A stretch of 64,000 nucleotides of DNA from Candidatus Kapaibacterium sp. (GCA_044224925.1 JBGAJM010000012.1:1510-65509), one strand, 5' to 3'. Positions 10,986-61,995 are shown, counted from the first letter of the stretch. Notes: generated by a model from the sequence alone, not told the origin. Numbers and translations: made by a program.

Positions 10986-11014
10986 GCCCGCAAACTACGA
11001 CAGCGAGAAGGATG

Positions 11015-16738: not shown

Positions 16739-16752
16739 GATGGCCTCCGCAG

Positions 16753-18222: not shown

Positions 18223-18305
18223 CAGACCCGCTCCACAATACTCTAAGGTGCGATTGCGACTCAAACATAGGCAGGAATTGGATGCCTCGCCACCTTACTT
18301 CCTTG

Positions 18306-18494
18306 TCATCCGATAATCGAATGAAGTGCGCATTTGCGCTTGTCGAGATCGGCTGCTCCCCACTGATGCCCGAGTGCAAACGAGGGCAGCCCACCAACGA
18401 GTATGGTGTTTTGAGCATGGACACAAACTTGCAGTACCGTGAAGAGCAGTACCGTACTCAGCATGTGCACACCCGAGCCTGTGACAGCCCTCAT
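18306..18494 (-). pseudogene. Truncated remnant of the 5' end of the giant protein gene
   Basis: MRAVTGSGVHMLSTVLLFTVLQVCVHAQNTILVG-GLPSFALGHQWGAADLDK matches the giant's N-terminus with an in-frame 54-bp deletion (16582-16635 equivalent), then diverges and stops. Confidence 0.85.
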
Positions 18495-18508
18495 GATGGC
18501 CTCCGCAG

Positions 18509-19979: not shown

Positions 19980-20674
19980 GGGATGGCGTTCGGTGTGGCG
20001 ACAGTGATACGTCGGGCGGTGCGTCGGACGTAGGGGATGTTCTTGCGATCGCAGAAGCGTTGCTGATCGGTGGTGCCGGGCAGACCCCAGGCGTCGTCGT
20101 CGTGGGGGTCGGAAAGAACGAAGCCGCCGTGCGCTGCGATGACCTGACCTTGATACTCGTCCACATCCGGTCGGTCCGTTGCCAGATACAACACGGCATC
20201 GGGACGCATCACGCGATGGAGCATGTTCAAGAAGTCGACCGTGAAGGCGCGACGTTTATGGTGCTTGTTCTTTGGCCATGGGTCCGGAAAGAGATAGAAG
20301 ACACGGTCGATGCTCTCTGTTACGATGAAGTCGATGCCGTTCACCACCGAATACCACCGGGCATGAGCATTGCCGAGCTGTTCACCCCGAATGACGCCGT
20401 TGATCCAGTCCACCAACTGATCCCGCACCTCGATGCCGAAGATGTTCACGTCGGGATGGGCCATGGCATAGGCCAGTAGAAGTCCGCCTCGACCGCAGCC
20501 GATGTCGAGCACCGTGGGCGGCGCGCCGTTCGCAAAGACGGTGCTCCAGTCGATCCGGTCGATATCCGGCGGATACCACGCCGGAAGATGCTTGTGCTGA
20601 TGCGCCGGAAGGTAGAGCAGGGAGCTCACATGGTGGCGAACACGGGGAATGGGATACTTTTTTGAATCGATCAT
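19976..20674 (-). CDS. trmB: tRNA (guanine-N7)-methyltransferase
   Basis: LDIGCGRG SAM motif, FPDPWPKNKHHKRR and ATD. Confidence 0.92.
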   Translation of the reverse strand: MIDSKKYPIPRVRHHVSSLLYLPAHQHKHLPAWYPPDIDRIDWSTVFANGAPPTVLDIGCGRGGLLLAYAMAHPDVNIFGIEVRDQLVDWINGVIRGEQLGNAHARWYSVVNGIDFIVTESIDRVFYLFPDPWPKNKHHKRRAFTVDFLNMLHRVMRPDAVLYLATDRPDVDEYQGQVIAAHGGFVLSDPHDDDAWGLPGTTDQQRFCDRKNIPYVRRTARRITVATPNAIP

Positions 20675-37651: not shown

Positions 37652-37665
37652 CCATCCCGTTCACG

Positions 37666-37702
37666 AAAAAGCCCGTCGTTCGAAAGAGCGACGGGCTTTT
37701 GT
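37666..37702. terminator. Bidirectional intrinsic terminator
   Basis: AAAAGCCCGTCGTTC-GAAA-GAGCGACGGGCTTTT lies between convergent genes. Confidence 0.88.
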
Positions 37703-37723
37703 GTTTGTTGAAATGGTCTTCGA

Positions 37724-38374
37724 TCAGTTGAAGGCGATCTTCACGCGCACCCAACTCCGCGCCGCCACGCCGCCCTTCTTCCCCGGAGTAAAGGGGATCC
37801 GATGGACAGCTTCTTCGGCAATGCGATCGATCTCGGCGTTGACGCGCAAGACGTGATCGATGCGGCCGATGGTCCCGTTGGCGAACACCTCGACGGCCAC
37901 GATGGCCGTGCCATGGAGCGATCCACCGGCACCCGGTGTGAGAGCCTCCAACGCCGTTCGCAGGTCGGCTTCGTTATACGTTGCGGCTACGTCGACCACG
38001 GCCGTCGTATCGAGTTCATCGAGACTCTTCGGCAACGGCACGGGCTTGAGGGCCCGCAACGTGTCGAGACTCCAGATCACACCGATCGACTCATGTTCCA
38101 ACCGCGTGCCGCGCGGCGGATAGCGCAACAGATCGAAGTCCGTCACATGCCGTCCACGATCGAACGCACCCGTATACACCATCACCGTATCCATGTCGCT
38201 CATCCACACGGCCTTGCCATTGCCATGCGCCGTGTCGTTGCGAACCTGTCCACTATACCACACGGATGTGACTTGAAACGCCTCGGGATTCTCGATCCAG
38301 CACGTTGTGCCCTTCGAGCGAATGAAGGCATCGCCGGGAAGGAGGAGGGAGGCGGTGAGGAGGAGATGGAGCAT
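37724..38374 (-). CDS. Exported protein with MORN-like N-terminal segment and TonB C-terminal-like domain
   Basis: WYSGQVRNDTAHGNGKAVW, and C-terminal 'GTAIVAVEVFANGTI...AEEAVHRIPFTPGKKGG...VKIAF'. Confidence 0.65.
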   Translation of the reverse strand: MLHLLLTASLLLPGDAFIRSKGTTCWIENPEAFQVTSVWYSGQVRNDTAHGNGKAVWMSDMDTVMVYTGAFDRGRHVTDFDLLRYPPRGTRLEHESIGVIWSLDTLRALKPVPLPKSLDELDTTAVVDVAATYNEADLRTALEALTPGAGGSLHGTAIVAVEVFANGTIGRIDHVLRVNAEIDRIAEEAVHRIPFTPGKKGGVAARSWVRVKIAFN

Positions 38375-38381
38375 GGGGGAG

Positions 38382-38443
38382 AATCGGAAGAGAATACAGG
38401 ATCAAGAATACAGAATCCCGATCAAGAATCAAGGATCAAGAAT
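38382..38443. repeat. Leader motif (38 bp, identical to 47729-47766) plus short ATCAAGR heptamer run
   Basis: AATCGGAAGAGAATACAGGATCAAGAATACAGAATCCC followed by GATCAAGAATCAAGGATCAAGAAT fills the intergenic gap. Confidence 0.9.
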
Positions 38444-39565
38444 TCACCAGCCAGGGAAGTCTGCAGGAACAACAATGTAGGTGACCGTCATGACAATGAT
38501 CTGGAGTGCATAGAAACGTTGCGCCAATTCAGGGCGCTCCTTCTTGATCGAGTGCCAATACCACATGATCACAAGTAGGGGAATGGTGATCACCATCCAG
38601 ATCACGGCGACCCCAAGATATCCTTGCGGAGGGAGACCGATCATATGTTGCGCGGTCTGTGCGGCCTTCCCATAGACGAGGATCAAGTGAGAGACATACA
38701 TGAAGAGCGATTCTTGTCCGACAACCTGCAAGAACTTGCCAATGCGCGACCGTTGAAGTCGGTCTTCGTTCAAATACAGGATACCGAGCAACGTGAGCGT
38801 TGCCGTGCAACAGAACAGTAGTATGCTTGGAGTGGCCTTCCACCAAATGTCGAGTGACCACGGTGCGGGAAGGGTCGACAGTTTCAACGTGAACAGCACC
38901 ACCGGCACAAAGAGTCCGGAGGCGATCCAGATCTTCGATATCATCGACTTGTTCGTCGATCGCATGAACACACTCGTGAGCGTAACGCCGGCGAAGAAGT
39001 AGAAACTCCACGGAAACATCGGGAACGGACTGGATGATGGGAACTCCGTCCATACCCACCACGAACTACACAGGACGAAGAGCGCTGCCGCCGCTGATAG
39101 GCGCGTGACGTTCTTGATGTTCCTGCCGATGAACACAAATGCCAACCCAATGAACGTCGAGTAGACGATCGTGTGAAGCACATCCACCTGAAGGCCCGGA
39201 AGGAGTTCATCCATCGAAGCCATCAAGGTGCGCTCAAGAGAATAGAAGGGGATGTGCAGTGTAAAGGCGCACCACAGTATGTAGAACAGTCGGCGTACGT
39301 ACAGATAGAGTGGTCTACCTCCATGAAGGTAGTCGTTGATCTTCCTCGACATCGCGATCCAAAATCCGGCACCGGCAAGAAAGATGAATGTTGGCGCAAC
39401 GTACCCATTGGTCACGTTCAGAACATCGAACGACGTGTTGACATGGATCGCCGGATCGATGAAGACATTCGTGATATGCACCTGGATCATCCAGAGGACG
39501 GCCAGACCGCGCGCTACGTCGAGGAAGATGAACCGGGAATTTGGACGTGGTTCCGATCGCGTCAT
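38444..39565 (-). CDS. DUF1624 / heparan-alpha-glucosaminide N-acetyltransferase-like membrane acyltransferase
   Basis: RFIFLDVARGLAVLWMIQVH N-terminal motif, APTFIFLAG, many TM helices. Confidence 0.78.
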   Translation of the reverse strand: MTRSEPRPNSRFIFLDVARGLAVLWMIQVHITNVFIDPAIHVNTSFDVLNVTNGYVAPTFIFLAGAGFWIAMSRKINDYLHGGRPLYLYVRRLFYILWCAFTLHIPFYSLERTLMASMDELLPGLQVDVLHTIVYSTFIGLAFVFIGRNIKNVTRLSAAAALFVLCSSWWVWTEFPSSSPFPMFPWSFYFFAGVTLTSVFMRSTNKSMISKIWIASGLFVPVVLFTLKLSTLPAPWSLDIWWKATPSILLFCCTATLTLLGILYLNEDRLQRSRIGKFLQVVGQESLFMYVSHLILVYGKAAQTAQHMIGLPPQGYLGVAVIWMVITIPLLVIMWYWHSIKKERPELAQRFYALQIIVMTVTYIVVPADFPGW

Positions 39566-39678
39566 GGCCGGCGCTCGTCTTTGCTGTTCGTCATCCGCCG
39601 GACGAATCCGAGGACGAAGTTGAAGGTGAAGATCACGCCAACCACGAAGAGCAGGAAGATGATGAGGTAGCGTTGCAT
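39562..39678 (-). CDS. Small single-pass membrane protein (38 aa)
   Basis: MQRYLIIFLLFVVGVIFTFNFVLGFVRRMTNSKDERRP. ATGA-coupled to the acyltransferase. A -7-like box TATTTTAC lies 4 nt upstream of its ATG. Confidence 0.6.
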   Translation of the reverse strand: MQRYLIIFLLFVVGVIFTFNFVLGFVRRMTNSKDERRP

Positions 39679-39733
39679 GTCGGTAAAATACGAGGCAGGG
39701 GGAAACGGCCTGCGAAGGGTGTATTTTCGCCCC

Positions 39734-41284
39734 ATGGCAAGTTCCTCTCTTATCGCGGCGATCGACGTTGGCACGAACTCCTTCCACATGGTGATCGCTT
39801 CGGTGAGCACGCGCGGAGTGTTGCGCATTCACAGTCGCGACAAGGAGATGGTACGTCTGGGCTCGAGTGCCGGCGATATCAAGCGCCTGACGCCCGAGGC
39901 CATCACGCGTGGCGTGCAAACGCTGAAGCGGTTCGTGACCGTGGCACGACAGCATGGTGCCGAGGTGCGGGCCGTGGCCACGAGTGCCACGCGCGAGGCC
40001 TTGAACCGCGACGAGTTCATCGATCGCGTGCGTCGTGAATGCGGCATCGACATCGAAGTGGTGGCGGGCTCCGAAGAGGGTCGACTGATCTACCTTGGCG
40101 CCCTTCATGCCCTTCCTATCCTTACCAAGCGCGCCCTTGTGATCGACATCGGCGGAGGCTCCACCGAAACGGTGATCGGCTATCAGGGAGAAGTGGCCTA
40201 CGTCCACTCCGCCAAGCTCGGCCACATCCGGCTTTCCAAGCGGTTCTTCCCCGATGCCGTGATCACGGACGATCAGATCGAGATGTGTCGACGGGCCATC
40301 AAGGGAGACTGGACGCCGATCTTCCAAAGTCTCATCGCCTACGGATTCGAGTACGCCATCGGCTCGTCGGGCACGGCCATGGCCATTGCCACGATGACGT
40401 TGGCACGACAAGGGAAGCGCATCCCGGAATCGCTGAATGCGCTGACGATCTCGCGCAACGATCTGCTGCAGACGATCGCCACCGTGGTGGAGGCGCGAAC
40501 GCTAGAGCAGCGCAAGGCCTTGCCCGGACTTGATGAGAAGCGGGCTGACATCATCATGGGCGGTGCGCTGATCCTCGAGCAGGCCATCATCGGTCTGAAC
40601 ATTCAAGAGCTCACGATGAGCGGTTATGCGCTTCGCGAGGGCACCGTCTTCGATACGGTGCAGAAGCAGCGCGATATCGACGAGTATCATCATCTGTCGC
40701 ACCTTCGCTATCAAAGCGTCGACCATCTCTGTGATCTCTACCGCGTTCACCGACCGCATGCCGAGCACGTGAAGAACCTCTGTCTGCGACTGTTCGACGA
40801 TCTGCAGCCGTTGCATCGATTCGCCGACCGAGAGCGCGAGCTCCTGGAGGCCGCAGCACTCCTGCACGACGTTGGCTATCACATCTCTGCCGAACAGCAT
40901 CACAAGCACAGCGACTACATCATTCGCAACAGCCCCATGCCGGGCTTCACGAACGACGAGGCCGAGATCGTGGCCACCGTGGCCCGCTACCATCGCAAGA
41001 GCTATCCCAAAAAGAAACACGAGTGGTTCACCGCCCTGAGCGCCTCGGAACAACAGGTGGTGCGCGTTCTGGCCGCCATCTTGCGCATCTGCGAGGGACT
41101 GGACCGACGGCAGCAACAACTCGTCACCACCGTCCGTGCCGTCTACACCGACCAATCCATCGAGATCTTCATGACCTCTCCCATGGGACTGCCCGATATC
41201 GAGCTCTGGGGGGCGGAACGGCGGAAGGGTCTGCTTGAGGAGGTCTACGGTCGAAAAGTGCGCCTTCTCCTGCACACGATGTGA
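39734..41284 (+). CDS. ppx: Ppx/GppA exopolyphosphatase with HD domain
   Basis: AAIDVGTNSFH, ATSATREA, DIGGGSTE, LREG and AALLHDVG motifs. Confidence 0.93.
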   Translation: MASSSLIAAIDVGTNSFHMVIASVSTRGVLRIHSRDKEMVRLGSSAGDIKRLTPEAITRGVQTLKRFVTVARQHGAEVRAVATSATREALNRDEFIDRVRRECGIDIEVVAGSEEGRLIYLGALHALPILTKRALVIDIGGGSTETVIGYQGEVAYVHSAKLGHIRLSKRFFPDAVITDDQIEMCRRAIKGDWTPIFQSLIAYGFEYAIGSSGTAMAIATMTLARQGKRIPESLNALTISRNDLLQTIATVVEARTLEQRKALPGLDEKRADIIMGGALILEQAIIGLNIQELTMSGYALREGTVFDTVQKQRDIDEYHHLSHLRYQSVDHLCDLYRVHRPHAEHVKNLCLRLFDDLQPLHRFADRERELLEAAALLHDVGYHISAEQHHKHSDYIIRNSPMPGFTNDEAEIVATVARYHRKSYPKKKHEWFTALSASEQQVVRVLAAILRICEGLDRRQQQLVTTVRAVYTDQSIEIFMTSPMGLPDIELWGAERRKGLLEEVYGRKVRLLLHTM

Positions 41285-41334
41285 TCGGTTCGTTCGTTAC
41301 TACCCCTTCGTAACTAACTCAGGAGATCCTTGCT

Positions 41335-42888
41335 ATGACAAAGCGTCCAATCCTTACCGCCCTTACTCTGATCGGGATCGGTATCGCTTTTGGTGTGGTG
41401 TTGATGACGAATTTCGGGAGCAATGCCCTCGAGTCCCTGCTGGCAAAAGGCGTCGGTGACCTTGGTGCGAAAACACCTCCCATTGTTCTGCCCGAGAACG
41501 TGAAGGCATTGAACAACGCCTTCGTCTCTGCATCGGATGCTGTGAAGAAGAACGTGGTGAGCATCACGGTGAAGACGGAGCAAAAGGGCGGACAAGTGAT
41601 GCCGCGCGATTTCTTCCGCTTCTTCGGTCCGGACGGACAGGAAGAAGATCAAGACGTGCAGCCACGCGAGGGTGAACAGGGCGGCAGTGGCGTGATCATC
41701 ACCGCAGACGGATATGTGGTCACGAACAATCACGTGGTGGAAGACGCGAAGGAGAACGGCATCACCGTGACCACCTTCGATGAAAAGGAATACAAGGCAA
41801 AACTCGTCGGTCGCGATCCGCTCACCGACCTTGCCGTGCTGAAGATCGAAGGACAGTTCCAAGCCGCACACCTGGCCGATCGCAGGAACGTGCGCGTGGG
41901 TGAATGGGTGATCGCCGTTGGTGCGCCGCTCGGACTCAAACAAACGGTCACCACCGGTATCGTGAGCGCCGAAGGCAGAGGTATCGGCATCATCGGCACC
42001 GACGAAATGCGTGGCACACGCAATCGGTTCTCCGTTGAGAACTTCATTCAAACAGATGCGGCCATCAACCCGGGAAATTCCGGCGGTGGTCTCTTCAATC
42101 TCGAAGGGTCGCTTGTCGGCATCAACACGGCCATCGCATCGCGCAGTGGCGTGAACGCCGGCTACGGTTTTGCCATTCCCATCGACATGGTGAAGAGCGT
42201 TGCGCTCGACCTGATCGACGATGGCAAGATCGAACGCGGATACATCGGCGTCGAGATCACCTCCGTGGACGAGACCGCTGCCAAGACCGTTGGTCTACAA
42301 CGGGTCGCCGGCGTGATGGTGAACAAGGTCGTGAAGGGTGGCGCGGCGGCCGCAGCCGGACTTGAAGAGGGCGATGTGATCCTTGATGTTGACGGAACAC
42401 CGGTGAAGACGTCGAATGAATTGCAGAATCAGATCGTACTGCATCGTGCCGGCGATCGCGTGACGTTGAAGATCTGGAGAGATCGCAAAGAGATCTCGAA
42501 GACCGTGACACTCAAGTCGCTCGATGACAATGGCGCCTTCGCAGAGGCATCGAACGATGGCAAGAGCGGAGATCGTCCGTCAAGCTCTGCAGACCCCGTC
42601 ACCTTCAAGGACCTTGGTTTCACGGCAAGTCCGCTCACCGAAGATGTGAAGCGCGATCTCGACACGAAGCAAGGTGTGCTCGTCACAAAGGTCGACGCAC
42701 GTGGTGTGGTCGCACGACGTGGACTTCAGTCGGGCGCCGTCATCCTCAAGGCCGACGGACAGATCGTGAACAACCCATCGGATCTCAAGCGCATTCTCAG
42801 CAACAAGGCCGGCGGTGATGGCGTGATGTTCGTGGTCAAGACCCGCGACGGAAAGCAGGCCATCACGGTCCAAGTGCCGGAGAGCTAA
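41335..42888 (+). CDS. degP: DegP/DegQ (Do family) serine protease with two PDZ domains
   Basis: TNNHVV, TDLAVLKI and QTDAAINPGNSGG motifs. Confidence 0.92.
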   Translation: MTKRPILTALTLIGIGIAFGVVLMTNFGSNALESLLAKGVGDLGAKTPPIVLPENVKALNNAFVSASDAVKKNVVSITVKTEQKGGQVMPRDFFRFFGPDGQEEDQDVQPREGEQGGSGVIITADGYVVTNNHVVEDAKENGITVTTFDEKEYKAKLVGRDPLTDLAVLKIEGQFQAAHLADRRNVRVGEWVIAVGAPLGLKQTVTTGIVSAEGRGIGIIGTDEMRGTRNRFSVENFIQTDAAINPGNSGGGLFNLEGSLVGINTAIASRSGVNAGYGFAIPIDMVKSVALDLIDDGKIERGYIGVEITSVDETAAKTVGLQRVAGVMVNKVVKGGAAAAAGLEEGDVILDVDGTPVKTSNELQNQIVLHRAGDRVTLKIWRDRKEISKTVTLKSLDDNGAFAEASNDGKSGDRPSSSADPVTFKDLGFTASPLTEDVKRDLDTKQGVLVTKVDARGVVARRGLQSGAVILKADGQIVNNPSDLKRILSNKAGGDGVMFVVKTRDGKQAITVQVPES

Positions 42889-42980
42889 CAACCCTCGGAA
42901 CTTTCTGATAAATTGCGGTCGCCATGGTTGTCCATGGCGACCGTTTTTGTTTGTGTTGCATTCTTTCGAGGGGCAGTCGT

Positions 42981-43658
42981 ATGAAACGCAGTATCACAGT
43001 ACTGACATTGTTCGCTGTTTGTGCAAGCGTATCACTTGCCGTTGAACCACCACCAATGTTCAGCACCGGTTCCTTCTCCGTCGGCCCATACGCGGGCATC
43101 ACGTACGGTTCCGTCACAACAGACCCGTCATCAGACGGATGGTCTTCGGCAATGGGCATCTCTGCCGGACTCGACGCACGCTACTATCTCTGCGAGACCT
43201 CGAACTTGCAATTGGGCCTCCGTTACGAGCAACGAGGCTCCAAGCAGAGCACGTCGAATCCGTTCTCTTCAACAGACTATAGCGAAATGCGGAACTACTT
43301 GAGCTTTGACGTGACCGCAGCGTGGTACTTCACGGAGATGTGCGACGGCGGCTTCCGTCCACGTTTGTATGGGGGTGTCTTCCTCGGGTCGTTCTTGAGT
43401 GGTACGTCAAAGGTCACGACAACGATCGGTGGAGGAAGTCCACAGACCTCGGAAACAGAGATCAAATCCGACAATGTGAATGCACTCAACTGGGGACCGA
43501 AGATCGGCCTTGGCTTTGATTGGAAGATGGGCCCTGGTGCATTGACGTTCGGTGTGAGCTACGACTATGCGATCTCGAACATTGACAACACCGGCGCAGG
43601 ATCGAAGTTCTACGACCGCGGCATCTCGGCAGGACTCGGCTATCAATTCGGATTTTAA
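42981..43658 (+). CDS. Outer membrane beta-barrel (PorT/porin-like) protein
   Basis: Signal peptide MKRSITVL..., alternating beta-strands, C-terminal YQFGF. Confidence 0.75.
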   Translation: MKRSITVLTLFAVCASVSLAVEPPPMFSTGSFSVGPYAGITYGSVTTDPSSDGWSSAMGISAGLDARYYLCETSNLQLGLRYEQRGSKQSTSNPFSSTDYSEMRNYLSFDVTAAWYFTEMCDGGFRPRLYGGVFLGSFLSGTSKVTTTIGGGSPQTSETEIKSDNVNALNWGPKIGLGFDWKMGPGALTFGVSYDYAISNIDNTGAGSKFYDRGISAGLGYQFGF

Positions 43659-43685
43659 CTCGACATAAAGATCGGACCTCACTGC

Positions 43686-44396
43686 ATGACGCGCTTCCTT
43701 TCCGCCTTCTCTTCTTTCGTTGCTTGCACGATCCTCGTGGCTTGTTTGTCGGCCGCTCCGGTCGTTGCCGCAGCTCCATGGTTCTTGGGTCCGACGTTCG
43801 CCTACACCATTGGCGTGAACGCGCCCGATGATGTGACGTTCACGTCGGGTCCACAGCGATTGAACATCGGACTTCAATGGATGATCGAGACATCGCGCAC
43901 CATCCAGATCCGAACGGCGCTCACGTATCGCACGGAACAGGCGGACTTCCAACAACCCGCACCGAACCTCAAACCGGTGGTCACACCCGGTGGTGGTGGA
44001 AGTGGATCGAGTTCAACAGAGAAGGTCCTCTCGTCCATCTCTGCCAATGCCGTGGTCTTCGAAGCATCTGCGCATTTCCCCATCGCACGACTTGATTCAA
44101 GCGGCAGCGCGCTCATGATCGGACTCGGTGGTTTCTTCGATCGCACGATCTCTGCATCGCAAACCGACGACTACCGCGGCGTGACGGGATGGCCGGAGCC
44201 AAAGACAGCATCGGAGGATTTCCCAACATCGTGGGGTGGCGGCGCCACACTCAATGCAGGTCTCTCCCTCCCCTTAGGCGACACCCGCCTTCTCTTCGAC
44301 GTCAAGTACATCGTCCGCTCCGCCCCCGCATCTGCAAGTCAGTACAGTTGGCTCAGCAACGGGGGCGTGAGTATTAGTGCAGGGGTGCTGTTTTAA
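43686..44396 (+). CDS. Outer membrane beta-barrel protein
   Basis: Signal peptide, amphipathic strands, C-terminal Phe (SAGVLF). Confidence 0.68.
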   Translation: MTRFLSAFSSFVACTILVACLSAAPVVAAAPWFLGPTFAYTIGVNAPDDVTFTSGPQRLNIGLQWMIETSRTIQIRTALTYRTEQADFQQPAPNLKPVVTPGGGGSGSSSTEKVLSSISANAVVFEASAHFPIARLDSSGSALMIGLGGFFDRTISASQTDDYRGVTGWPEPKTASEDFPTSWGGGATLNAGLSLPLGDTRLLFDVKYIVRSAPASASQYSWLSNGGVSISAGVLF

Positions 44397-44400
44397 GAGC

Positions 44401-44546
44401 ACTGCGTGGGACACAAGAGTGCGACACAAGAGTGCGACACGAGAGTGCGACACGAGAGTGCGACACGGAGTGCGACACGAGAGTGCGACACTTTGTGCGA
44501 CACTTGCGTGATCCTGTATTCTTGATCCTGTATTCCTCTTCTGATT
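44401..44546. repeat. Left arm: tandem 12-13-bp array (1x GTGGGACAC + 7x GTGCGACAC cores) followed by reverse-oriented leader motif
   Basis: Cores at 44406, 44419, 44432, 44445, 44458, 44470, 44483 and 44495. GATCCTGTATTCTTGATCCTGTATTCCTCTTCTGATT at 44510-44546. Confidence 0.93.
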
Positions 44547-44621
44547 TCTTCCCCGCTCCCTCCTCCCTTCGTCACATTCTCCGCCTTCCAGGTCCCTTCT
44601 GTCACACAACGGAGTTGGACC

Positions 44622-45092
44622 ATGGCATTGCACAATCTGCGCATCTTCCTTCTTGCGCAGCACATCAATTCACGGGTGACGACGCAGGTGCTTTCGTGGA
44701 CATACCTGCATCAGCAGACCTTGGGGAAGCAGATCCTTCGATCGGCCGATTCGATCACGAACAACATCAGCGAAGGATACGCTCGCGTTCGAACCGGTGA
44801 GCGTCTTCAGTTGCTGTGGTATGCCGAGGGCTCCATTCAGGAGACCAAGAATGGCGTTCGGCGCTGCGTACAACGGAGGATCCTTGATGAAGAGGCTGGC
44901 AAGGAACTCGAAACGCAACTCACACGGCTCTCGATCTCGCTGATCGAATTCATGCATGCGATCCTCGTGAAGGACCCGGAGTATATCGGGCCCTACCGCC
45001 GGAAGGTGGAAGAGCGAAGGGCGTGGAGAGAGAAAGGAAGAGAGGAATCGGAAGAGGAATACATAATCAAGAATACAGGATCCAATTCTTGA
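44622..45092 (+). CDS. Four helix bundle protein (23S rRNA IVP / TIGR02436 / bAvd-like family)
   Basis: LGKQILRSADSITNNISEGY...ERLQLLWYAEGSIQET matches the family signature QxxRSAxSIxxNIAEG...AxGSxxE. GGAG lies 7 nt before the ATG. Confidence 0.88.
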   Translation: MALHNLRIFLLAQHINSRVTTQVLSWTYLHQQTLGKQILRSADSITNNISEGYARVRTGERLQLLWYAEGSIQETKNGVRRCVQRRILDEEAGKELETQLTRLSISLIEFMHAILVKDPEYIGPYRRKVEERRAWREKGREESEEEYIIKNTGSNS

Positions 45093-45242
45093 ATCGTGTA
45101 ATACATGATCGCACTCTCGTGTCGCACTCTCGTGTCGCACTCTCGTGTCGCACTCTCGTGTCGCACTCCGTGTCGCACTCTCGTGTCGCACTCTTGTGTC
45201 GCACTCTCGTGTCGCACATCGTGTCGCACTCTCGTGTCGCAC
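45046..45242. repeat. Right arm: leader motif followed by tandem 12-13-bp array (10x GTGTCGCAC cores), inverted relative to the left arm
   Basis: AATCGGAAGAGGAATACATAATCAAGAATACAGGATC at 45046-45082. (TCGCACTCTCGTG)n at 45109-45242 is the reverse complement of the left array unit. Confidence 0.93.
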
Positions 45243-45246
45243 GAAG

Positions 45247-47142
45247 TTAGATCTCTATATGCGACCCCACCTCCAGCGCCCGCTTGACCGGAATGCCGAA
45301 GTACTTCACCGGTGTGCGCGAGTTGCGGTGCATGAAGGCGAAGATCTCCTTGCGCCATCGGACCATGCCGCCTTCCTGCTTGATGGAGAGCGATTCGTTG
45401 CCGAGGACGAAGACGGCGTCGGTGATGTCGACGGGGACGTCGAACTCGGGGAGATACATCAGGTCGTCGAGGAGGTTGAGCTGGTCCATGAAGCCGTAGC
45501 TAAGAATGACCTTGTAGAAGCCCTTCTCCATAGGCACCACTTCGAAGCGATGTTCGTGTTCGATGTGCGAGACCGTCTTCACGCTTACCGTGAGGAGGAT
45601 CATGGTCTCGTGTCGACTTCGATTGTAGCGAAGGTTGGAGATCAGCGCCGGTGGTGCGACGTCTTGGTAGCCCGTCATATACAGCGCCGTGCCGGGGACG
45701 ATGCAGTACATGTCGATCTCGTCCTTGAGGATCTGATCCACCGACTGATTGCGTTTGTGAATGGCATCACGAAGAATACCACGTCCACGATGCCACGTGA
45801 CCATCACGAGGTACGTTGCTGCGGCCATCATCACGGGAACATAGCCGCCATCCTTGAACTTGAAGACGTTGGCGATGAAGAACGATCCGTCGATCACCAA
45901 CAAGACACTTGCGATCGACGCTGCGACAGTGCGGCTCCACCCGAAGAGTCGACGCATGGCGAAGTAGGCGAGCATCGTGGTGATCACCATGGTCGTGGTG
46001 ACGGCGATACCGTAGGCGGCAGCGAGTGCGCCCGAGGTCTGGAAGACGACAACGAGCAACACCGTCGACAGGAACAAGACCCAATTCACGGTGGGCAGAT
46101 AGATCTGTCCGCGCTCTTCGTGACTGGTGTGCATCACTTTCAATCGCGGCAGGTAGCCGAGCTGCAGTGCCTGCCACGTGAGCGAGAAGGCGCCGCTGAT
46201 CACAGCCTGCGAAGCCACGACCGTGGCAAAGGCCGCCACGATCACAAGGGGAATGACGCCCCACGTTGGTACCATGTGGAAGAACGGATCGGCAACGACG
46301 GCCTTGTTCGATCCTTCGCGAAGAAGAAGAGCGCCTTGGCCGAAGTAGTTCAGGACCAGTGCCGGAAAGACGAGGATGAACCAACCGCGACGGATGGGTT
46401 TCTTTCCGAAGTGTCCCATGTCGGCATAGACCGTCTCGCCACCCGTCATCACAAGGAAGACCGAGCCAAGCACAAGGAAGGCGCGGATGTCGTGATGCAT
46501 GAAGAACTGCACAGCATACCATGGATTCACGGCCATCAGCACGTGCGGTGTTTGGACAAGACTGATCAGACCGAGCACGGCAATGAGGATGAACCAGAAC
46601 GTCATGAACGGACCGAAGATGCGGCCCACGCCACCGGTGCCGTACTTCTGAATGAAGAACAGTCCGAACAGAATGGTCAGTGTGATCGGCAACACCACCG
46701 ACGCAAGTGAAGGCGCTGCTACTTTCAAACCTTCGACGGCAGACAACACGGAGATCGCAGGGGTGATGATCCCGTCGCCATACAACAACGCTGCACCAAA
46801 AATGCCAACAGCAAAAATGAACGTCATGCGAGCAAAGCCGTTCGTTCGCTTGCTTACCAACTCCATCAACGCAAGGATGCCGCCTTCGCCTTTGTTGTCG
46901 AAGCGCATGATCAAGGCAAGGTACTTCACGCAGATCACGATCGTGAGCGACCAGAAGATCAACGACAGGATGCCGAAGACCTCGGACTCTTGAGCATGAA
47001 GATTGTAGTGTTCAGAGAAGCACTCTTTGAGCGAGTACAGGGGCGACGTTCCGATGTCGCCATAAACGACGCCAATAGCGCCAATGGTGAGGGCAAGCAG
47101 GCGCGACTTTGCGCTCTTGCCCTCGGTCTGTTCGGCGTCCAT
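45247..47142 (-). CDS. kup: KUP/HAK/KT potassium transporter
   Basis: GVVYGDIGTSPLY, DNKGEGG, YGDGIITPAISVLSAVEG and YADMGHF motifs. Confidence 0.97.
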   Translation of the reverse strand: MDAEQTEGKSAKSRLLALTIGAIGVVYGDIGTSPLYSLKECFSEHYNLHAQESEVFGILSLIFWSLTIVICVKYLALIMRFDNKGEGGILALMELVSKRTNGFARMTFIFAVGIFGAALLYGDGIITPAISVLSAVEGLKVAAPSLASVVLPITLTILFGLFFIQKYGTGGVGRIFGPFMTFWFILIAVLGLISLVQTPHVLMAVNPWYAVQFFMHHDIRAFLVLGSVFLVMTGGETVYADMGHFGKKPIRRGWFILVFPALVLNYFGQGALLLREGSNKAVVADPFFHMVPTWGVIPLVIVAAFATVVASQAVISGAFSLTWQALQLGYLPRLKVMHTSHEERGQIYLPTVNWVLFLSTVLLVVVFQTSGALAAAYGIAVTTTMVITTMLAYFAMRRLFGWSRTVAASIASVLLVIDGSFFIANVFKFKDGGYVPVMMAAATYLVMVTWHRGRGILRDAIHKRNQSVDQILKDEIDMYCIVPGTALYMTGYQDVAPPALISNLRYNRSRHETMILLTVSVKTVSHIEHEHRFEVVPMEKGFYKVILSYGFMDQLNLLDDLMYLPEFDVPVDITDAVFVLGNESLSIKQEGGMVRWRKEIFAFMHRNSRTPVKYFGIPVKRALEVGSHIEI

Positions 47143-47168
47143 GAAGGACCCTTGCGTTCTGAAACAAC

Positions 47169-47191
47169 AACGCCCCGCTGAGCAGGGCGTT
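47169..47191 (-). terminator. Probable terminator hairpin downstream of the DinB-family gene, abutting the kup -7 box
   Basis: On the - strand AACGCCCTGC-TCA-GCGGGGCGTT then GTTGTTTC. TAATTTCG (- strand) at 47192-47199. Confidence 0.5.
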
Positions 47192-47230
47192 CGAAATTAC
47201 AGCAAAATCGGTCCGAGTGTTCTCACCGTT

Positions 47231-47719
47231 TCAAACAAGGTAGCGCTCATGGAGAATGGTGGCATGGTGGAAGGCATGTCCGGCCACGATGTACACGATG
47301 GCATTCACAGAAATGGCCTGTCCATTCGCAATGCCGGTCTTGAGCATGTCGGCATCGGTGAACGACTGGAACAATGCAAGGTTGGAAGCACGCACACTGT
47401 GCAGCTCGGAAACGATGTCGTACACCGTGCGACGATCGAACCCTGCCGCCTTGACGAAGTCATCCTCTTCAAAGCCCGGGATCGGATCCGTACTTCCGCG
47501 TGCGAACATCAGGGCACGATAGGCGAACACACGCTCCGTGTCGCACAGATGCCCAAGCAACTCCTTCACACTCCACTTGCCCGGCGCATAGCGGTGCATG
47601 GCCACTTCTTCCGTCAGTGTGAGGTAGGTGGCGCATTCATCCACTTGCTGTTGCAGCATGTCGAACACATCACCACGAACGTGGCTGACGTAGCGGGCGT
47701 AGTATTCGGGGAAGAGCAT
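47231..47719 (-). CDS. DinB/YfiT family protein
   Basis: RYAPGKWSVKELLGHLCDTERVFAYRAL and GHAFHH motifs. Confidence 0.88.
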   Translation of the reverse strand: MLFPEYYARYVSHVRGDVFDMLQQQVDECATYLTLTEEVAMHRYAPGKWSVKELLGHLCDTERVFAYRALMFARGSTDPIPGFEEDDFVKAAGFDRRTVYDIVSELHSVRASNLALFQSFTDADMLKTGIANGQAISVNAIVYIVAGHAFHHATILHERYLV

Positions 47720-47728
47720 AGGCGAAGA

Positions 47729-47951
47729 AATCGGAAGAGAATACAGGATCAAGAATACAGAATCCCACGAAGTGTCCCACGAAGTGTCCCACGCAGTGTC
47801 CCACGCAGTGTCCCACGCAGTGTCCCACGCTAGTGTCCCACGCTAGTGTCCCACGCTAGTGTCCCACGCTAGTGTCCCACGCTAGTGTCCCACGCAGTGT
47901 CCCACGCAGTGTCCCACGCAGTGTCCCACGCTAGTGTCCCACAACGTGTCC
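47729..47951. repeat. Leader motif plus tandem 12-13-bp array (14x GTGTCCCAC cores)
   Basis: 38-bp leader at 47729-47766. Linkers in order: GAA x2, GCA x3, GCTA x5, GCA x3, GCTA, AAC. The array ends at the gcdH stop. Confidence 0.95.
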
Positions 47952-49118
47952 TCAGCTGAACGCCTGGATCCCCGTGATATCCTGTCCGATGATCAGCGTG
48001 TGCATTTCGTGCGTGCCTTCGTAGGTCTTCACGGATTCGAGATTGGCGGCGTGGCGCATCACGGGATATTCATCCAGGATGCCGTTGGCACCGTGGATCT
48101 CGCGAGCGATGCGGGCGATGTTGAGGGCCATTTCGACGTTGTTGCGTTTGGCCATCGACACCTGTTGTGGGCGGATGTTGCCGGAGTCCTTGATCTTGCC
48201 GAGGCGCCAGCAGAGGAGCTGTGCCTTGGTGATCTCGTTGATCATGTAGACCAGCTTCTCTTGTGTGAGCTGGAAGCCGGCGATCGGCTTGCCGAACTGG
48301 ATGCGGCTCTTGGCATAGTTGAGGGACGAATCGTAGCAGGCCATGGCCGAGCCGATCACGCCCCAGGAGATGCCGTAACGGGCTTGGGTAAGACAGCCCA
48401 AAGGTCCCTTCAACCCTTCCACCCCGGGAAGGATGTTCGCTTCGGGGATCTCCACGTCCTGGAAGACCAATTCGGAGGTGACCGAGGCGCGGAGGGAGTG
48501 TTTGCCCTTCATTTCGGGGGCCGTGAAGCCCTTCATGCCCTTTTCGACCAGGAAGCCGCGGACCACGCCGTCGAGCTTGGCCCAGACGACGGCCACATCG
48601 GCCAAGGTGCCGTTGGTGATCCACATCTTGGCGCCGTTCAGCAGGAATCCACCGTCGATCTTCTTGGCATTGGTGACCATGCCGGCGGGGTTCGATCCGG
48701 CGTCGGGCTCTGTAAGACCGAAGCAGCCGATGGCCTTCCCGGCGGCCAGACGGGGAAGCCACTTGCGACGTTGCTCTTCGGAGCCGTACGTGTAGATCGG
48801 ATACATCACGAGCGAGCTTTGGACGGAGGCGAAGGAGCGAACGCCCGAATCGCCGCGCTCGAGCTCTTGCATGGCAAGGCCATAGCAGATGTTGTTCAGG
48901 CCGGCTCCACCGTATTCCGTGGGCAAAGTGACCCCAAAAACGCCCATTTCGGCCATTTTTTCGACCAAATGCATCGGAAACGACCCTTGGCGAGCGTGAT
49001 GCTCGATAATCGGGAGCACTTCATTGTCGACAAAGTCGCCAACCGCTTGACGGACCAGTTTTTCCTCGTCGGTCAGAAGTTCATCGATGTTCAAATAGTC
49101 TGGGTGTTGGAAGGCCAT
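47952..49118 (-). CDS. gcdH: Acyl-CoA dehydrogenase, glutaryl-CoA dehydrogenase-like
   Basis: ELERGDSGVRS, GCFGLTEPDAGS, KMWITNG and TYEGTHEMH motifs. Confidence 0.85.
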   Translation of the reverse strand: MAFQHPDYLNIDELLTDEEKLVRQAVGDFVDNEVLPIIEHHARQGSFPMHLVEKMAEMGVFGVTLPTEYGGAGLNNICYGLAMQELERGDSGVRSFASVQSSLVMYPIYTYGSEEQRRKWLPRLAAGKAIGCFGLTEPDAGSNPAGMVTNAKKIDGGFLLNGAKMWITNGTLADVAVVWAKLDGVVRGFLVEKGMKGFTAPEMKGKHSLRASVTSELVFQDVEIPEANILPGVEGLKGPLGCLTQARYGISWGVIGSAMACYDSSLNYAKSRIQFGKPIAGFQLTQEKLVYMINEITKAQLLCWRLGKIKDSGNIRPQQVSMAKRNNVEMALNIARIAREIHGANGILDEYPVMRHAANLESVKTYEGTHEMHTLIIGQDITGIQAFS

Positions 49119-60409: not shown

Positions 60410-61861
60410 TCACCAGTGCTTCGTTGCCGTTGCAACGTTGCCCCATGTGTTCGTGATGGTGATCCGCATGTCCGTACTTGACGCAGAGATCGCACTTGGA
60501 TCGCGCAGCGGAACTTCGAATCGAGAGAGGATGCCGTCGTTCGTTCGCACGAGTCGCGCCGTTCCGCGTGCAGCCGTGAGCGTATCGGTGCGCACAGCGC
60601 CACCGACGGTGCTTTGTGCGATCACGCGGACATCACATTGCGTGGGAATGTGGTCCGTGAAGTCCACGATCAACGTCGGCACGTTGTCCATACGCACCAT
60701 CTCTGCGCCCTTGAAATCCGGTCGGTCCTCCAACGCAACACGTTGGACTTCGGTGCTACGCTTCAGATGCTCGACGTGAACGGTGGGTACGTTCACGGTG
60801 CGCACGGCTTTCCGACGGTTCGCATCGATCGTGAAATACTCGATGTTCATGATGTCTTGACTCTTTGCGCTCACCACACCATCGCCCGGTTCGAAGAGCG
60901 CCGGCGCACCTCCGCCGAACACACCGAGCGTCTTACGCAAGAGCTCTTGAATGAACCCTTCACTGAGCTTCGATGCACCGTTGAACATATCGATGGTGCC
61001 GATCACGCTCACGTACTCCAGGTCAAGCGGATGCGCACGCTTGCCGAGCCGCGTAAGAAACACGCCGCCATCTTCCGGACGTCGGAGGTCGCGCACGGCA
61101 GGGGCGTTGTAGGGAACATCGTCTTCGGTGCCTTGAATAGCGCTCAATGCCGCCTTGCAGGGCGTGTTCACGATCACGTTCGAAGATGCCGCGCACTGCT
61201 CAAGGTCCGTCTTCCACGTCCACACCTTTGCGAACGGCGACCCAAGATGCGGCGTGCCCACGGTGATCAGTCGCTTCACATGATGGTCGGTATATCGTTC
61301 GGTGAGATACTGCCGCGCCGCAAGTCCACCCATGCTATAGCCGATCAAGATCACGCGGTCGGCACCGGTCTGCTTCAGAACGAAGTCCACACAGGTCTCC
61401 AGCTCCTTGCCCCATGCGGCCACGGAGTCGTACGGGTTCGAGAACGAAACGATATAGAAATCACCATCTTGGTTCCCCGCCGCATTCGTCTGCACCACAC
61501 CATGCTGTACGCGCAACGTCCCGCCATTCGACAACCCAAGGTCCTTCGAGAAATACTTCGTCGCCTCACCACTCCACACATCGGACTTCTGTCCGAGCCC
61601 ATGCAGCAGCAGCACCGGATACGGCACATGCATCGTTGTGATCTCGCGTGGCGGCGTGTAGGATGGAAGGGTGGAAAGGCGGGAGGGGATGGTGGAGCAA
61701 GAAACTAAGAAGAGAGTTACGAGGAGAGTTACGAGTGACAAGTGACGAGTGACGAGTTGAGTGACAAGTGACAAGTGACGAGTGACGAGTTGAGTGACAA
61801 GTGACAAGTAACGAGTGACGAGTTGAGTGACGAGTGACAAGTGACGAGTGACAAGTTGCAT
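60410..61861 (-). CDS. Lipoprotein alpha/beta hydrolase (lipase/esterase-like) with repeat-derived N-terminus
   Basis: PVLLLHG, GYSMGG nucleophile elbow, GTPHLGS and GDGVV. Lipobox LVSC is preceded by (QLVTRHLSLVT)x4. Start codon is uncertain. Confidence 0.8.
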   Translation of the reverse strand: MQLVTRHLSLVTQLVTRYLSLVTQLVTRHLSLVTQLVTRHLSLVTLLVTLFLVSCSTIPSRLSTLPSYTPPREITTMHVPYPVLLLHGLGQKSDVWSGEATKYFSKDLGLSNGGTLRVQHGVVQTNAAGNQDGDFYIVSFSNPYDSVAAWGKELETCVDFVLKQTGADRVILIGYSMGGLAARQYLTERYTDHHVKRLITVGTPHLGSPFAKVWTWKTDLEQCAASSNVIVNTPCKAALSAIQGTEDDVPYNAPAVRDLRRPEDGGVFLTRLGKRAHPLDLEYVSVIGTIDMFNGASKLSEGFIQELLRKTLGVFGGGAPALFEPGDGVVSAKSQDIMNIEYFTIDANRRKAVRTVNVPTVHVEHLKRSTEVQRVALEDRPDFKGAEMVRMDNVPTLIVDFTDHIPTQCDVRVIAQSTVGGAVRTDTLTAARGTARLVRTNDGILSRFEVPLRDPSAISASSTDMRITITNTWGNVATATKHW

Positions 61862-61995
61862 TGGGAAGGAAAAGAGAAGTAAAAGAGAAGTAAGAAAGAA
61901 GTAAAAGAGAAGTACGAAGTAGCGAAACGACAAGTGCACGAGTGTCGGTTAAACTCGTCACTTGTCACTCGTAACTCGTAACTCAACTTGTCACT
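61714..61995. repeat. Composite heptamer inverted repeat with 11-mer purine spacer
   Basis: (RAGTKAC)n at 61714-61856 with a 33-bp higher-order period. (AAAAGAGAAGT)x4 at 61870-61913. Inverted (ACTYGTM)n at 61952-61995. Confidence 0.9.

Follow-up and report, generated by a model that had tools for sequence, protein, structure and literature searches.

Bacterial heptamer repeats have been known since the cyanobacterial STRR work, and there is no agreed origin or role for them. Pneumococcal BOX elements are laid out as boxA, a variable number of boxB and boxC, in modules of 45-59 nt that fold extensively, and the Rickettsia palindromic elements (RPEs) are palindromic single units inserted in frame in proteins. 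The cited part of the BOX literature describes an interspersed repeat confined to one species group, judged to be parasitic and slow-moving (PMC3049150). The intergenic heptamers of other bacteria (STRR of Calothrix and Nostoc; TAACTGA of Beggiatoaceae, Cyanobacteria and Bacteroidetes; GGGAATC of Xanthomonas) are presented, in the sections of the two reports used here, as lineage-specific, often just 5' of start codons and of unknown function (PMC4679880, PMC4692102). The same sections describe STRR-like arrays whose length differs among relatives, with inverted pairs common in Xanthomonas (PMC4679880, PMC4692102).

In Coxiella burnetii's 23S rRNA intervening sequence (IVS), an S23p ORF lies within a stem that is cut by RNase III, and the cited excerpt places two to three tandem heptamers before the start codon, in a number that varies between strains, and describes the ORF as decaying (PMC4990558). 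In Haemophilus influenzae, a heptamer SSR in the hmw 5'-UTR, between promoter and start codon, is one arm of a long RNase III-processed hairpin, and repeat number sets expression, according to the section cited (PMC12721329). That source concerns one virulence locus, at which phase variation is proven, whereas the repeats considered here form a genome-wide family.

This family was met in a stretch of 64,000 nucleotides from Candidatus Kapaibacterium sp. (GCA_044224925.1 JBGAJM010000012.1:1510-65509; hereafter the window), where an earlier note had described four copies of a leader running into tandem arrays of differing units. The tracts are a variant within a known, unexplained repeat class. 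The four copies are probably members of one genome-wide family of mosaic tandem repeats, specific to this lineage, that serves as the arms of IVS-like PF05635 hairpin cassettes. This genome (G000) was compared with its sister species G003 and the more distant congener G002.

Repeat tracts in the window and across the genome

Direct reading of the sequence confirmed the leader copies of the earlier note: 38382-38419 and 47729-47766 match at 38/38 bases, and variants lie at 44510-44546 (reverse) and 45046-45082. The link that it had drawn between two array types is also exact, ACTGCGTGGGACAC at 44401-44414 being the reverse complement of the 47.8-kb array unit. TRF returned 6.3 copies of period 7 at 38401-43, 6.7 copies of period 13 at 44406-91 (94% matches), 10.5 copies of period 13 at 45109-242 and 14.5 copies of period 12 at 47763-942 (97% matches). 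The repeats lie well beyond chance: a degenerate leader pattern matched twice in the window against 0 across 100 shuffles. Feature coordinates are collected in Table 1.

Table 1. Repeat arms, cassette parts and an adjoining gene, in window coordinates.
Feature	Position	Strand	Description
TonB_C-like gene	37724-38374	minus	ATG at 38374, after solo arm 1
Solo arm 1 (copy 1)	38382..38443	+	leader 38382-38419, then ATCAAGR heptamers
Left arm (copy 2), B array	44401..44505	-	7-8 units of GTGTCGCAC + TCTC/TCTT/TCC, read on minus strand
Left arm, leader (A module)	44510..44549	-	pairs with 45043-45082, 40 nt, 90% complementary
Pyrimidine-rich 5' leader of PF05635 gene	44550..44621	+	predicted pairing with purine-rich 3' end of ORF
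PF05635 gene (23S rRNA intervening-sequence protein, four-helix bundle)	44622..45092	+	156 aa; E 2.3e-16, 60.4 bits (cut-off 33.8)
Right arm (copy 3), leader (A module)	45043..45082	+	complement of left-arm leader
Right arm, B array	45109..45247	+	10.5 units, mainly GTGTCGCAC-TCTC; abuts kup stop codon (45247-45249)
Solo arm 4 (copy 4)	47729..47951	+	leader 47729-47766, then ~15 B units (GTGTCCCAC + GAA/GCA/GCTA)
Related tract, beyond the four copies	61712..61995		C heptamer arrays inverted (61712-61858 reverse, 61953-61995 forward) flanking GAAGTAAAAGA 11-mer (D) array 61865-61914

Copies 1 and 4, by contrast with the paired copies 2 and 3, stand as solo arms, each taking up the whole spacer between co-directional genes. 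The leader stops 18-20 nt before the ATG of the gene downstream, and the opposite end meets the stop codon of the gene upstream. Copy 1 extends from the stop codon of an acyltransferase gene (38444-39565, minus) to 18 nt short of the TonB_C-like ATG, and copy 4 from the stop of an acyl-CoA-dehydrogenase-like gene (47952-49118, minus) to 20 nt short of the DinB_2 ATG (47719). In mRNA sense neither has a special fold (z +0.58 and -1.03), so a single-element structure of the BOX type was not found.

Across the genome, the 21-nt leader core (<=3 mismatches) has 35 matches, against 0 for a reversed control, and the flanks of these cores are unrelated, with homology only among cyclase paralogs. The suggestion of a dispersed element, and not a confined local duplication, is therefore upheld. 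The four sites are real, but they stand among about 185-197 repeat tracts, and the 'different units' attributed to them are the modules of a single ordered mosaic, not free variation. Abundant repeats in this genome fall into just four families: A, the leader with its AATACAG/ATCAAGR heptamers; B, GTGTCSCAC followed by 3-4 nt; C, heptamers of the form CACTYGT; and D, 11-mers of GAAGTAAAAGA. Period-7 arrays number 157, of which 112 are of the C family and ~45 of the A family; the units of B, at 12/13 nt, and of D, at 11 nt, are longer than heptamers.

The leader is the inner end of a tract ordered A, then B, then C. Outside the cyclase ORFs, 38 module transitions are forward (A to B 20, A to C 12, B to C 6) and 11 reverse. 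Module junctions are conserved, as with CCCACGAAGTGCAACTYGTCAC, which is retained even where no B units remain, and the usual 3' end of a tract is GTAACT(CAACT). Where tract edges face the stop of a gene, 84/136 lie within 20 nt of it, and the A side is found at gene ends and gene starts alike (47 tracts vs 42). In 20/30 cyclase ORFs, members of an expanded adenylate-cyclase family, the same A-B-C mosaic persists in frame in a loop of the catalytic domain, and the inserts, tandem repeats in direct orientation, are open in the frame in which the intact ORFs carry them. This in-frame mosaic, the fixed module order and the pairing of copies 2 and 3 described below are absent from the earlier note. 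Short-read assemblies are broken by the tracts, contigs stopping at arrays.

The tracts resemble STRR in their 7-nt head-to-tail units at many intergenic loci, their restriction to a lineage and a copy number that differs between close relatives. Unlike STRR, several families are joined here in a set order whose junctions are conserved, only two families out of the four have heptamer units, and there is an association with PF05635 cassettes, a link not found in the sections of PMC4679880 and PMC4692102 drawn on here. With BOX they share a fixed module order, conserved end modules and a varying number of internal units, but there is no sequence relation, each module here is a microsatellite, and the solo arms lack a special mRNA-sense fold. 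Like RPEs, these repeats are tolerated in frame inside proteins, but as tandem direct arrays. The exclusion of CRISPR and REP in the earlier note holds, given 9-nt cores separated by 3-4-nt linkers from a small set in the one case, where a CRISPR array would have repeats of about 23-50 nt and unique spacers of similar length, and direct repeats of 7-13 nt in the other, where REP/BIME units would be imperfect palindromes of 20-40 nt.

A PF05635 hairpin cassette between two protein genes

Copies 2 and 3, far from being independent elements, pair with each other as the two arms of a single PF05635 hairpin cassette, which is set between two convergent genes, the OMP-like gene (43686-44396) and kup (45247-47142, minus). 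The left array begins 4 nt past the OMP-like stop codon with an outermost unit of the GTGTCCCAC-GCA type, and on the other side the right-arm leader supplies the final ~15 codons of the PF05635 gene. The B arms are 97% complementary over 73 nt, and the predicted fold of the cassette is an 850-nt hairpin of -459.6 kcal/mol (z -21.4), which 0/20 shuffles equalled. A diversity-generating retroelement was considered for this locus and rejected, there being no RVT_1 in the genome and the neighbours of the PF05635 gene being the OMP-like gene and kup.

As in an IVS, complementary termini, predicted to form a stable stem, surround a PF05635 ORF. The likeness to the 23S IVS of Coxiella burnetii and Leptospira, as far as the cited excerpts describe them, extends to the arms, the ORF, the variable arrays and the presence of a decayed copy here too. 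The differences are that the arms measure 150-200 nt and consist almost wholly of tandem units, against 28 bp for the Coxiella stem in the excerpt, that the units include 11-, 12- and 13-mers, and that the arm sequences recur ~190 times elsewhere in the genome. Unlike the 23S IVS, moreover, the cassette sits between protein genes and is not inserted in a 23S rRNA helix (no rRNA match was found in 37500-48500), and RNase III cleavage is here a prediction.

The genome has four PF05635 genes, and inverted arrays bracket three of the four loci, with arms of A + B, C and D respectively; each of the four abundant families thus forms cassette arms, which provides the repeats with a concrete, testable genetic context. 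Same-family inverted pairs within 1.5 kb number just 16 in the whole genome. In relatives, inverted flanking arms were detected at 16/30 PF05635 loci, as against 0/54 shifted control positions, and almost all of these arms are tandem arrays with units particular to the locus; at the other 14/30 loci none were detected. The closest PF05635 proteins have arm types in common, which may be simple co-inheritance. With ~190 tracts to four PF05635 genes, most tracts have no nearby cassette, and the correlation with four-helix-bundle gene count suggested for testing in the earlier note is not one to one, although a trend is seen across a small genome sample.

Turnover of arrays and cassettes

The leader core occurs in 26 copies in G003, and at orthologous sites there the arrays are independently assembled. 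Unit number is equal in the two species at copy 1, lower in G003 at the tract at 61712..61995, and much changed at copy 4, where the G003 leader is unaltered and 4 B units stand against ~15 here. In G002 none of the three repeat families was found, and its OMP-kup gap is 105 nt long, with an ordinary terminator hairpin and no cassette. No insertion polymorphism was seen between G000 and G003, 8/8 tested leader loci being occupied in both. We infer mobility from the dispersal of the family and the cassette-free G002 site; movement itself was not observed.

Recombination between arms would account for an inversion in the sister species, the cassette interior (44510-45178) being inverted relative to its flanks in G003, where the arms at the 44.4/45.1-kb cassette are built of GTGTCCCAC 12-mers (5 units left, ~23 right). 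Cassettes are also replaced, and decay to gene-less hairpins. Upstream of der, a C-armed cassette in G000 has a D-armed counterpart in G003 with identical outer boundaries, and where G003 has its C-armed cassette, G000 has a remnant lacking 117 nt.

Within arrays, adjacent B units are identical in 54/186 cases (29%), compared with 9.8% of random pairs, and the TCTC/TCTT 13-mer variant occurs in the 44.4-kb arm and the 45.1-kb arm and nowhere else. Together with the shared 12-mer of both G003 arms, this bears out the local homogenisation that the earlier note had proposed. The oldest-looking unit lies at the outer edge (44401-44414) and the interior is homogenised, a pattern that fits slippage and conversion, and the reading frame kept by in-gene arrays points to selection on slippage products.

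Origin and role of the tracts

If the tracts are cassette arms, as we think probable, replication slippage or unequal exchange would lengthen and shorten the arrays, and recombination between the two arms would keep them alike and flip the interior. Hairpins that lack a gene, like the solo arms, could be cassette leftovers, or copies made by array-array recombination without a transposase. Where both arms lie on one transcript, a stem of ~150 bp would form an RNase III-type substrate, like the 23S rRNA intervening sequences. Solo arms would mostly be tolerated as near-neutral DNA, although the genes that follow may be tuned by differences in arm length.

Alternatively, the tracts may be functional cis-regulatory arrays, either phased DNA or RNA sites for a protein (possibly a PF05635 pentamer) or 5' leaders whose varying length sets the expression of the gene after them, a reading which we hold to be possible but somewhat unlikely. 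The leader lies 18-21 nt before the ATG at six unrelated genes and 18-31 nt before it at ~8 of the ~26 non-cyclase leaders, and upstream of genes the B units show a strong bias of orientation (8-mer GCGTGGGA, 15 sense vs 1 antisense); this spacing and bias resemble function or target choice more than neutral debris. The take-over of whole stop-to-start spacers and the variation of unit number between species are in keeping with such a role. There are also precedents, within the sections cited, in hmw, where RNase III is involved and expression depends on repeat length (PMC12721329) and in the TAACTGA repeats just 5' of start codons in Beggiatoaceae (PMC4679880). However, the identical mosaic occurs in frame in cyclase loops and after gene ends, and the congener G002, which has none of the three families, carries ordinary terminators at the sites that hold tracts here. 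The leader holds no sigma-70-type promoter, TAnnCTTG shows no enrichment 5' of genes (9 vs 12), and there is no Rfam family.

A MITE-like non-autonomous transposon, whose leader would be a terminal inverted repeat moved by a transposase acting in trans and whose arrays would be slipping internal cargo, appears improbable. The family is dispersed and lineage-specific, inverted leader pairs 50-120 nt apart exist at two loci (C6:269692/269764 and C10:75053/75152), and BOX offers a modular analogue deemed parasitic and slow-transposing in the cited part of PMC3049150. Most leader copies, however, are single leaders without an inverted partner, where terminal inverted repeats would be expected on every copy. 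The listed ends of leader copies show no target-site duplication, no transposase-like ORF adjoins a leader in the flanks read, and there were 0 new insertions among the 8 loci compared with G003.

Regrowth of arrays from a fixed leader anchor by templated, polymerase-driven addition of a telomerase- or retroelement-like kind, one of the mechanisms offered in the earlier note, is suggested by the constant leader beside a varying array and by the resemblance of PF05635 to Avd, a diversity-generating retroelement accessory protein (PMC10053308, in the section cited), but can hardly be credited, as the 99.65% complete genome has no match to the RVT_1 reverse transcriptase to which control genomes did respond, no template-like copy adjoins the arrays, the oldest-looking unit sits at the outer edge of a homogenised interior, and in-gene arrays stay in frame.

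The reading of the tracts as arms of PF05635 cassettes can be carried further, to a proposal which we consider speculative and rather unlikely as it stands. PF05635 cassettes would be unrecognised selfish elements with tandem-array arms, each lineage seeding and maintaining its own array family, and the toroidal four-helix-bundle protein would bind cognate units and promote their exchange, expansion or copying. The STRR, TAACTGA and GGGAATC heptamers would then be both footprints and landing pads of such elements, and the 23S rRNA IVS their best-known insertion site. The cassettes offer a testable link between three puzzles, namely the heptamer repeats, the function of PF05635 proteins and how rRNA intervening sequences arose. 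In practical terms, arrays can extend or create reading frames, and both ORF callers used here ran frames into arrays.

Repeat copies in the window and the PF05635 cassette

The repeat feature is genuine, and all the coordinates claimed in the earlier note for its four leader-and-array copies were borne out when positions 38000-48500 were read directly. The leader and array positions are collected in the table; the outermost unit, at 44401-44414, matches the 47.8-kb unit exactly once reverse-complemented. The degenerate leader pattern has two matches in the window versus none in 100 shuffles, and the distal ends of all four copies lie within 0-4 nt of a stop codon. Logan contigs break at the window arrays (X1: 43350-44445, 44442-45064, 45178-46128), and the joints in such contigs were rejected as repeat artefacts in which different arrays are joined. 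One 43-nt contig from a metatranscriptomic-labelled run matches 45114-45156, within a 13-mer array, exactly, and is too short to infer transcription.

The two inner copies form the pair of arms of a single PF05635 cassette. The ORF between them matches PF05635 (23S rRNA intervening-sequence protein; E 2.3e-16), and the tracts on either side are mutually inverted, with 97% complementarity between the B arrays (73 nt) and 90% between the leaders (40 nt). The region 44398-45248 is predicted to fold as RNA into one long stem of -459.6 kcal/mol (shuffles -298 +/- 7.6; z -21.4). The left B array begins 4 nt past the stop of the OMP-like gene, and the right array runs up to the kup stop codon. Inverted arrays bracket three of the four PF05635 matches in the genome under study (G000), with a different arm family each time, and same-family inverted pairs within 1.5 kb number only 16 in the whole genome.

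Coordinates of the repeat features and compared loci (window positions unless a contig is given)
Feature	Location	Description
Leader 38-mer	38382-38419; 47729-47766	identical
Leader variants	44510-44546 (reverse); 45046-45082
Tandem array	38401-38443	period 7 (TRF)
Tandem array	44406-44491	period 13, 6.7 copies (TRF)
Tandem array	45109-45242	period 13, 10.5 copies (TRF)
Tandem array	47763-47942	period 12, 14.5 copies (TRF)
PF05635 locus	44622-45092	arms A plus B
PF05635 locus	G000 C7:128.8-129.3 kb	arms C
PF05635 locus (remnant)	G000 C30:7.1-7.6 kb	arms D
PF05635 locus	G000 C17	no arrays
Cyclase ORFs	G000 C3:55187-92992; C13:32954-57469; C11:355687-362100; C7:64528-66879
Site upstream of der	G000 C7:128250-129400	C-armed cassette plus small extra gene
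Site upstream of der	G003 C8:848500-853000 (L119)	D-armed cassette
Intact cassette	G003 C8:900500-904700 (L120)	arms C
Counterpart of L120	G000 C7:73570-73936	inverted C arrays around remnant
Locus with length difference	G000 C22:67234-70254 (L028); G003 C8:485950-491472
Facing leaders	G000 C6:269692-269784; C10:75053-75172	divergent genes

The link between cassette and array extends to relatives. PF05635 is present in 26 of the 41 genomes of the order (G000 included), and in a fixed blastn test on 30 loci, taken from the 74 matches listed, inverted arms flank the gene at 16 loci versus 0 of 54 control positions shifted by 950 nt at the same loci; the 14 loci without arms by this test include a few that hold short complementary arrays below its reach. 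Nearly all of these arms are tandem arrays whose unit differs by lineage (e.g. CAGGTTA, GGTTTTG, GAGGGACTA, GTAGCTC, CAGCGAA and AGTTCAG, the last in 50 copies). The closest PF05635 proteins have the same arm type (protein identity 68-73% for C-arm, 77-91% for GGTTTTG-type and 80% for CAGGTYA loci), a pattern which fits the descent of gene and arms together; a match in arm type alone is no proof that the protein recognises the repeat.

Short-unit array density also tracks PF05635 count, and the correlation with four-helix-bundle gene number that the earlier note proposed to test holds as a trend in a small sample of related genomes. Arrays per 100 kb amount to 0, 1.1 and 1.0 in G002, G008 and G030 (no PF05635 match), 1.0 and 0 in G009 and G026 (one), 2.0 in G016 (two), 6.8 in the whole of G000 and 12.2 in G003 (four each), 16.8 in G024 (seven) and 9.5 in G018 (nine), figures to be read knowing that the genomes are kin, that G003, G018 and G024 are biased because their samples were picked around known arrays or cassettes, and that G036 (0 matches, 16 kb) is left out.

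Ordered mosaic tracts across the genome

The earlier note had allowed for a leader confined to the four local copies; instead, its 21-nt core (up to 3 mismatches) has 35 matches across G000 (3.4 Mb, 99.65% complete, the window being its contig C20) versus 0 for the reversed control, and the unit motifs occur ~4- to 14-fold above reversed controls. Only four abundant tandem families emerge from a genome-wide TRF search: C (CACTYGT heptamers, 112 arrays, ~5.1 kb), B (GTGTCSCAC + 3-4 nt, ~45 arrays, ~4 kb), A (AATACAG/ATCAAGR, ~45 arrays) and D (GAAGTAAAAGA, ~18 arrays). Every one of the four supplies arms to a PF05635 cassette. Other arrays of similar size are almost all single-locus, many with 15- to 30-nt units. 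Dispersal by segmental duplication was rejected because, outside the adenylate-cyclase paralogs, no flank homology extends beyond the leader, save two short low-complexity signal-peptide-like matches.

Along a tract the modules are arranged in the order A-B-C. Leaving the cyclase ORFs aside, forward steps between modules number 38 (20 from A to B, 12 from A to C and 6 from B to C), compared with 11 reverse steps and 6 changes of strand. Several of the reverse steps are chance motif matches within genes, and four of the tracts listed are cyclase tails not caught by the filter. Tracts have junctions in common, one of which, ...CCCACGAAGTGCAACTYGTCAC..., persists even without any full B unit. GTAACT(CAACT) is the usual terminus of C arrays, and the leader can itself be read as a heptamer array that has been frozen (GAAATCG, GAAGAGG, AATACAG, GATCAAG, AATACAG). 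The earlier description of differing array units holds in that units do differ by site, but these are modules of one ordered mosaic, and the apparent differences therefore reflect which modules are expanded at each site.

The tracts occupy entire spacers between genes. Clustering of motif hits gives 194-197 tracts, or 185 under a stricter definition, with 84 of 136 edges that face a gene stop lying within 20 nt of it and 48 of 100 that face a called start within 30 nt, the figures that rest on the custom gene caller being approximate because it runs ORFs too far through arrays. Upstream of genes, most B units are in reverse (GTGGGACAC) orientation and so share the polarity of a cassette's upstream arm.

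The mosaic also occurs in frame within intact ORFs. Thirty class III adenylate-cyclase ORFs were found in G000 by their C-terminal motif, and in 20 of them an in-frame A(-B)-C mosaic occupies a loop of the catalytic domain, as a 30-79 aa insert between ...HVSEAFA... and ...IKGKG that reads K[SK]NTE..IQN...(VSHx)n...SSLVT with 0-9 VSHx units. A second in-frame B or A array lies ~70 codons upstream in 16 of the ORFs, and 15 have both. Inserts vary among tandem paralogs, and paralogs without arrays have ordinary loops at these positions.

Change between species and taxonomic spread

The inversion of the cassette interior, the turnover of units and the replacement and decay of cassettes are seen directly when G000 is set against its sister species G003, a member of the same genus whose flanks are 90-94% identical. 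The window cassette is also present at this position in G003, with the interior (window 44510-45178) reversed relative to the flanks. The G003 arms are built of GTGTCCCAC 12-mers (5 units left, ~23 right) and those of G000 of GTGTCGCAC-TCTC 13-mers; within G000 the TCTC/TCTT linker (12 units) is confined to the two arms of the window cassette. A lone GTGTCCCAC-GCA unit at the outer edge (44401-44414) appears to be left over from the older unit type. In G000, 54 of 186 pairs of neighbouring B units (29%) are identical, versus 9.8% of random pairs. Copy 4, the solo arm at 47.8 kb, has ~15 B units in G000 versus 4 in G003 with the leader kept, and the C array at 61.7 kb ~21 versus ~15, while copy 1 at 38.4 kb is conserved unit for unit.

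Whole cassettes change as well. Upstream of der, the C-armed cassette of G000 and the D-armed cassette of G003 share identical outer boundaries. Where G003 has the intact C-armed cassette L120, G000 has inverted C arrays enclosing a remnant that has lost 117 nt and falls below PF05635 scoring, a case of cassette decay towards a gene-less hairpin. In the more distant congener G002 (kup only ~72% identical), none of the three repeat families searched and no PF05635 match was found; at its cassette site the OMP-like and kup genes are 105 nt apart with an ordinary terminator hairpin between them. All eight leader loci compared between G000 and G003 (four in the window, four elsewhere) are occupied in both, with no fresh insertion among them, and leader dispersal thus predates the split of the two species.

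Larger differences between the two genomes were also recorded. Window 11011-19994 (9 kb) has no counterpart in G003, where its flanks lie 23 nt apart in the syntenic alignment, which makes it an indel or island. Window 38503-39351, the 3' four-fifths of an acyltransferase gene, has no blastn match of at least 300 nt in G003, although its flanks are ~93% identical; the divergence begins near the edge of the repeat tract (38444) and might mark an exchange of alleles whose breakpoint fell at the array. G003 has ~1.5 kb of extra DNA at window 42889-42909, between the HtrA-like and first OMP-like genes, and ~2.5 kb extra relative to locus L028 (query positions 1204-1222), ~200 nt away from a C-A repeat tract.

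Across G000 and 40 relatives, B dimers number 253 in G000, 224 in G003 and 4 in G004 (0 in the other 38), and the leader 33 in G000, 26 in G003 and 1 in G001. C trimers number 187 in G000, 191 in G003, 7 in G001, 143 in G018, 243 in G020 and 207 in G024 (0 elsewhere). The CACTYGT family is abundant in three of seven genomes of genus g6 (143-243 trimer matches) and absent from the other four, a patchiness which suggests transfer or rapid loss. When 185,579 species genomes were screened for B trimers, 40 stretches came up: 20 in one 'Bacteroidetes bacterium' MAG, 2 in a Candidatus Kapaibacterium MAG, 2 in Ignavibacteria MAGs and 16 in 14 further records from unrelated taxa. Apart from these last 16, B trimers are essentially restricted to this small clade.

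Mechanism and the regulatory question

The interpretation of the leader and array as a dispersed element regrown locally was partly right. Array length would change through slippage or unequal exchange, and recombination between arms could both invert the interior and make the arms evolve in concert. Cassettes may be the source of the solo arms and gene-less hairpins, which might instead have been copied by recombination between arrays. Because no reverse transcriptase was found in the G000 genome, a DGR mechanism was discarded, and so was the templated repeat addition proposed in the earlier note, which is unlikely on the same ground. If both arms lie on one transcript, the stem might be processed by RNase III, by analogy with the Coxiella intervening sequence (IVS) and the Haemophilus hmw leader. 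The Coxiella IVS combines an S23p ORF with an RNase III-cleaved stem and has 2-3 GACAGAT heptamers before the start codon, their number varying by strain (PMC4990558), and the hmw leader provides the other basis for the analogy (PMC12721329).

The tracts belong to a known, unexplained repeat class: heptamer repeats are described as such in PMC4679880 and PMC4692102, and BOX elements are modular and offer a working analogue of the mosaic tracts (PMC3049150). No paper on genome-wide tandem arrays tied to PF05635 cassettes outside rRNA came up in a literature search that covered listings and selected passages.

A role for the leader as promoter was rejected because none of the leaders contains a sigma-70-like site. 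Upstream of genes there is a modest enrichment of the Bacteroidetes-type TAnnTTTG (46 vs 22) but not of the leader's TAnnCTTG (9 vs 12); owing to the imprecision of the called start codons, neither upstream composition nor 6-mers showed a clear signal. Folding of the solo arms in the mRNA sense is unremarkable (z +0.58 and -1.0), and an Rfam search of 37500-48500 returned nothing above E 0.49. A regulatory function of the solo arms nevertheless remains a live alternative to their being by-products of cassettes, since the spacing from leader to ATG is fixed: at six unrelated genes the ATG follows the leader's GGAAGAG end by 18-21 nt, and at ~8 of ~26 non-cyclase copies it does so within 31 nt. 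Two sites in G000 have a pair of facing leaders, 50-80 nt from one another, between divergent genes, one of the genes being mscL-like (MGMVSEFKEF... start), with 28-43 nt from leader to ATG at each gene.
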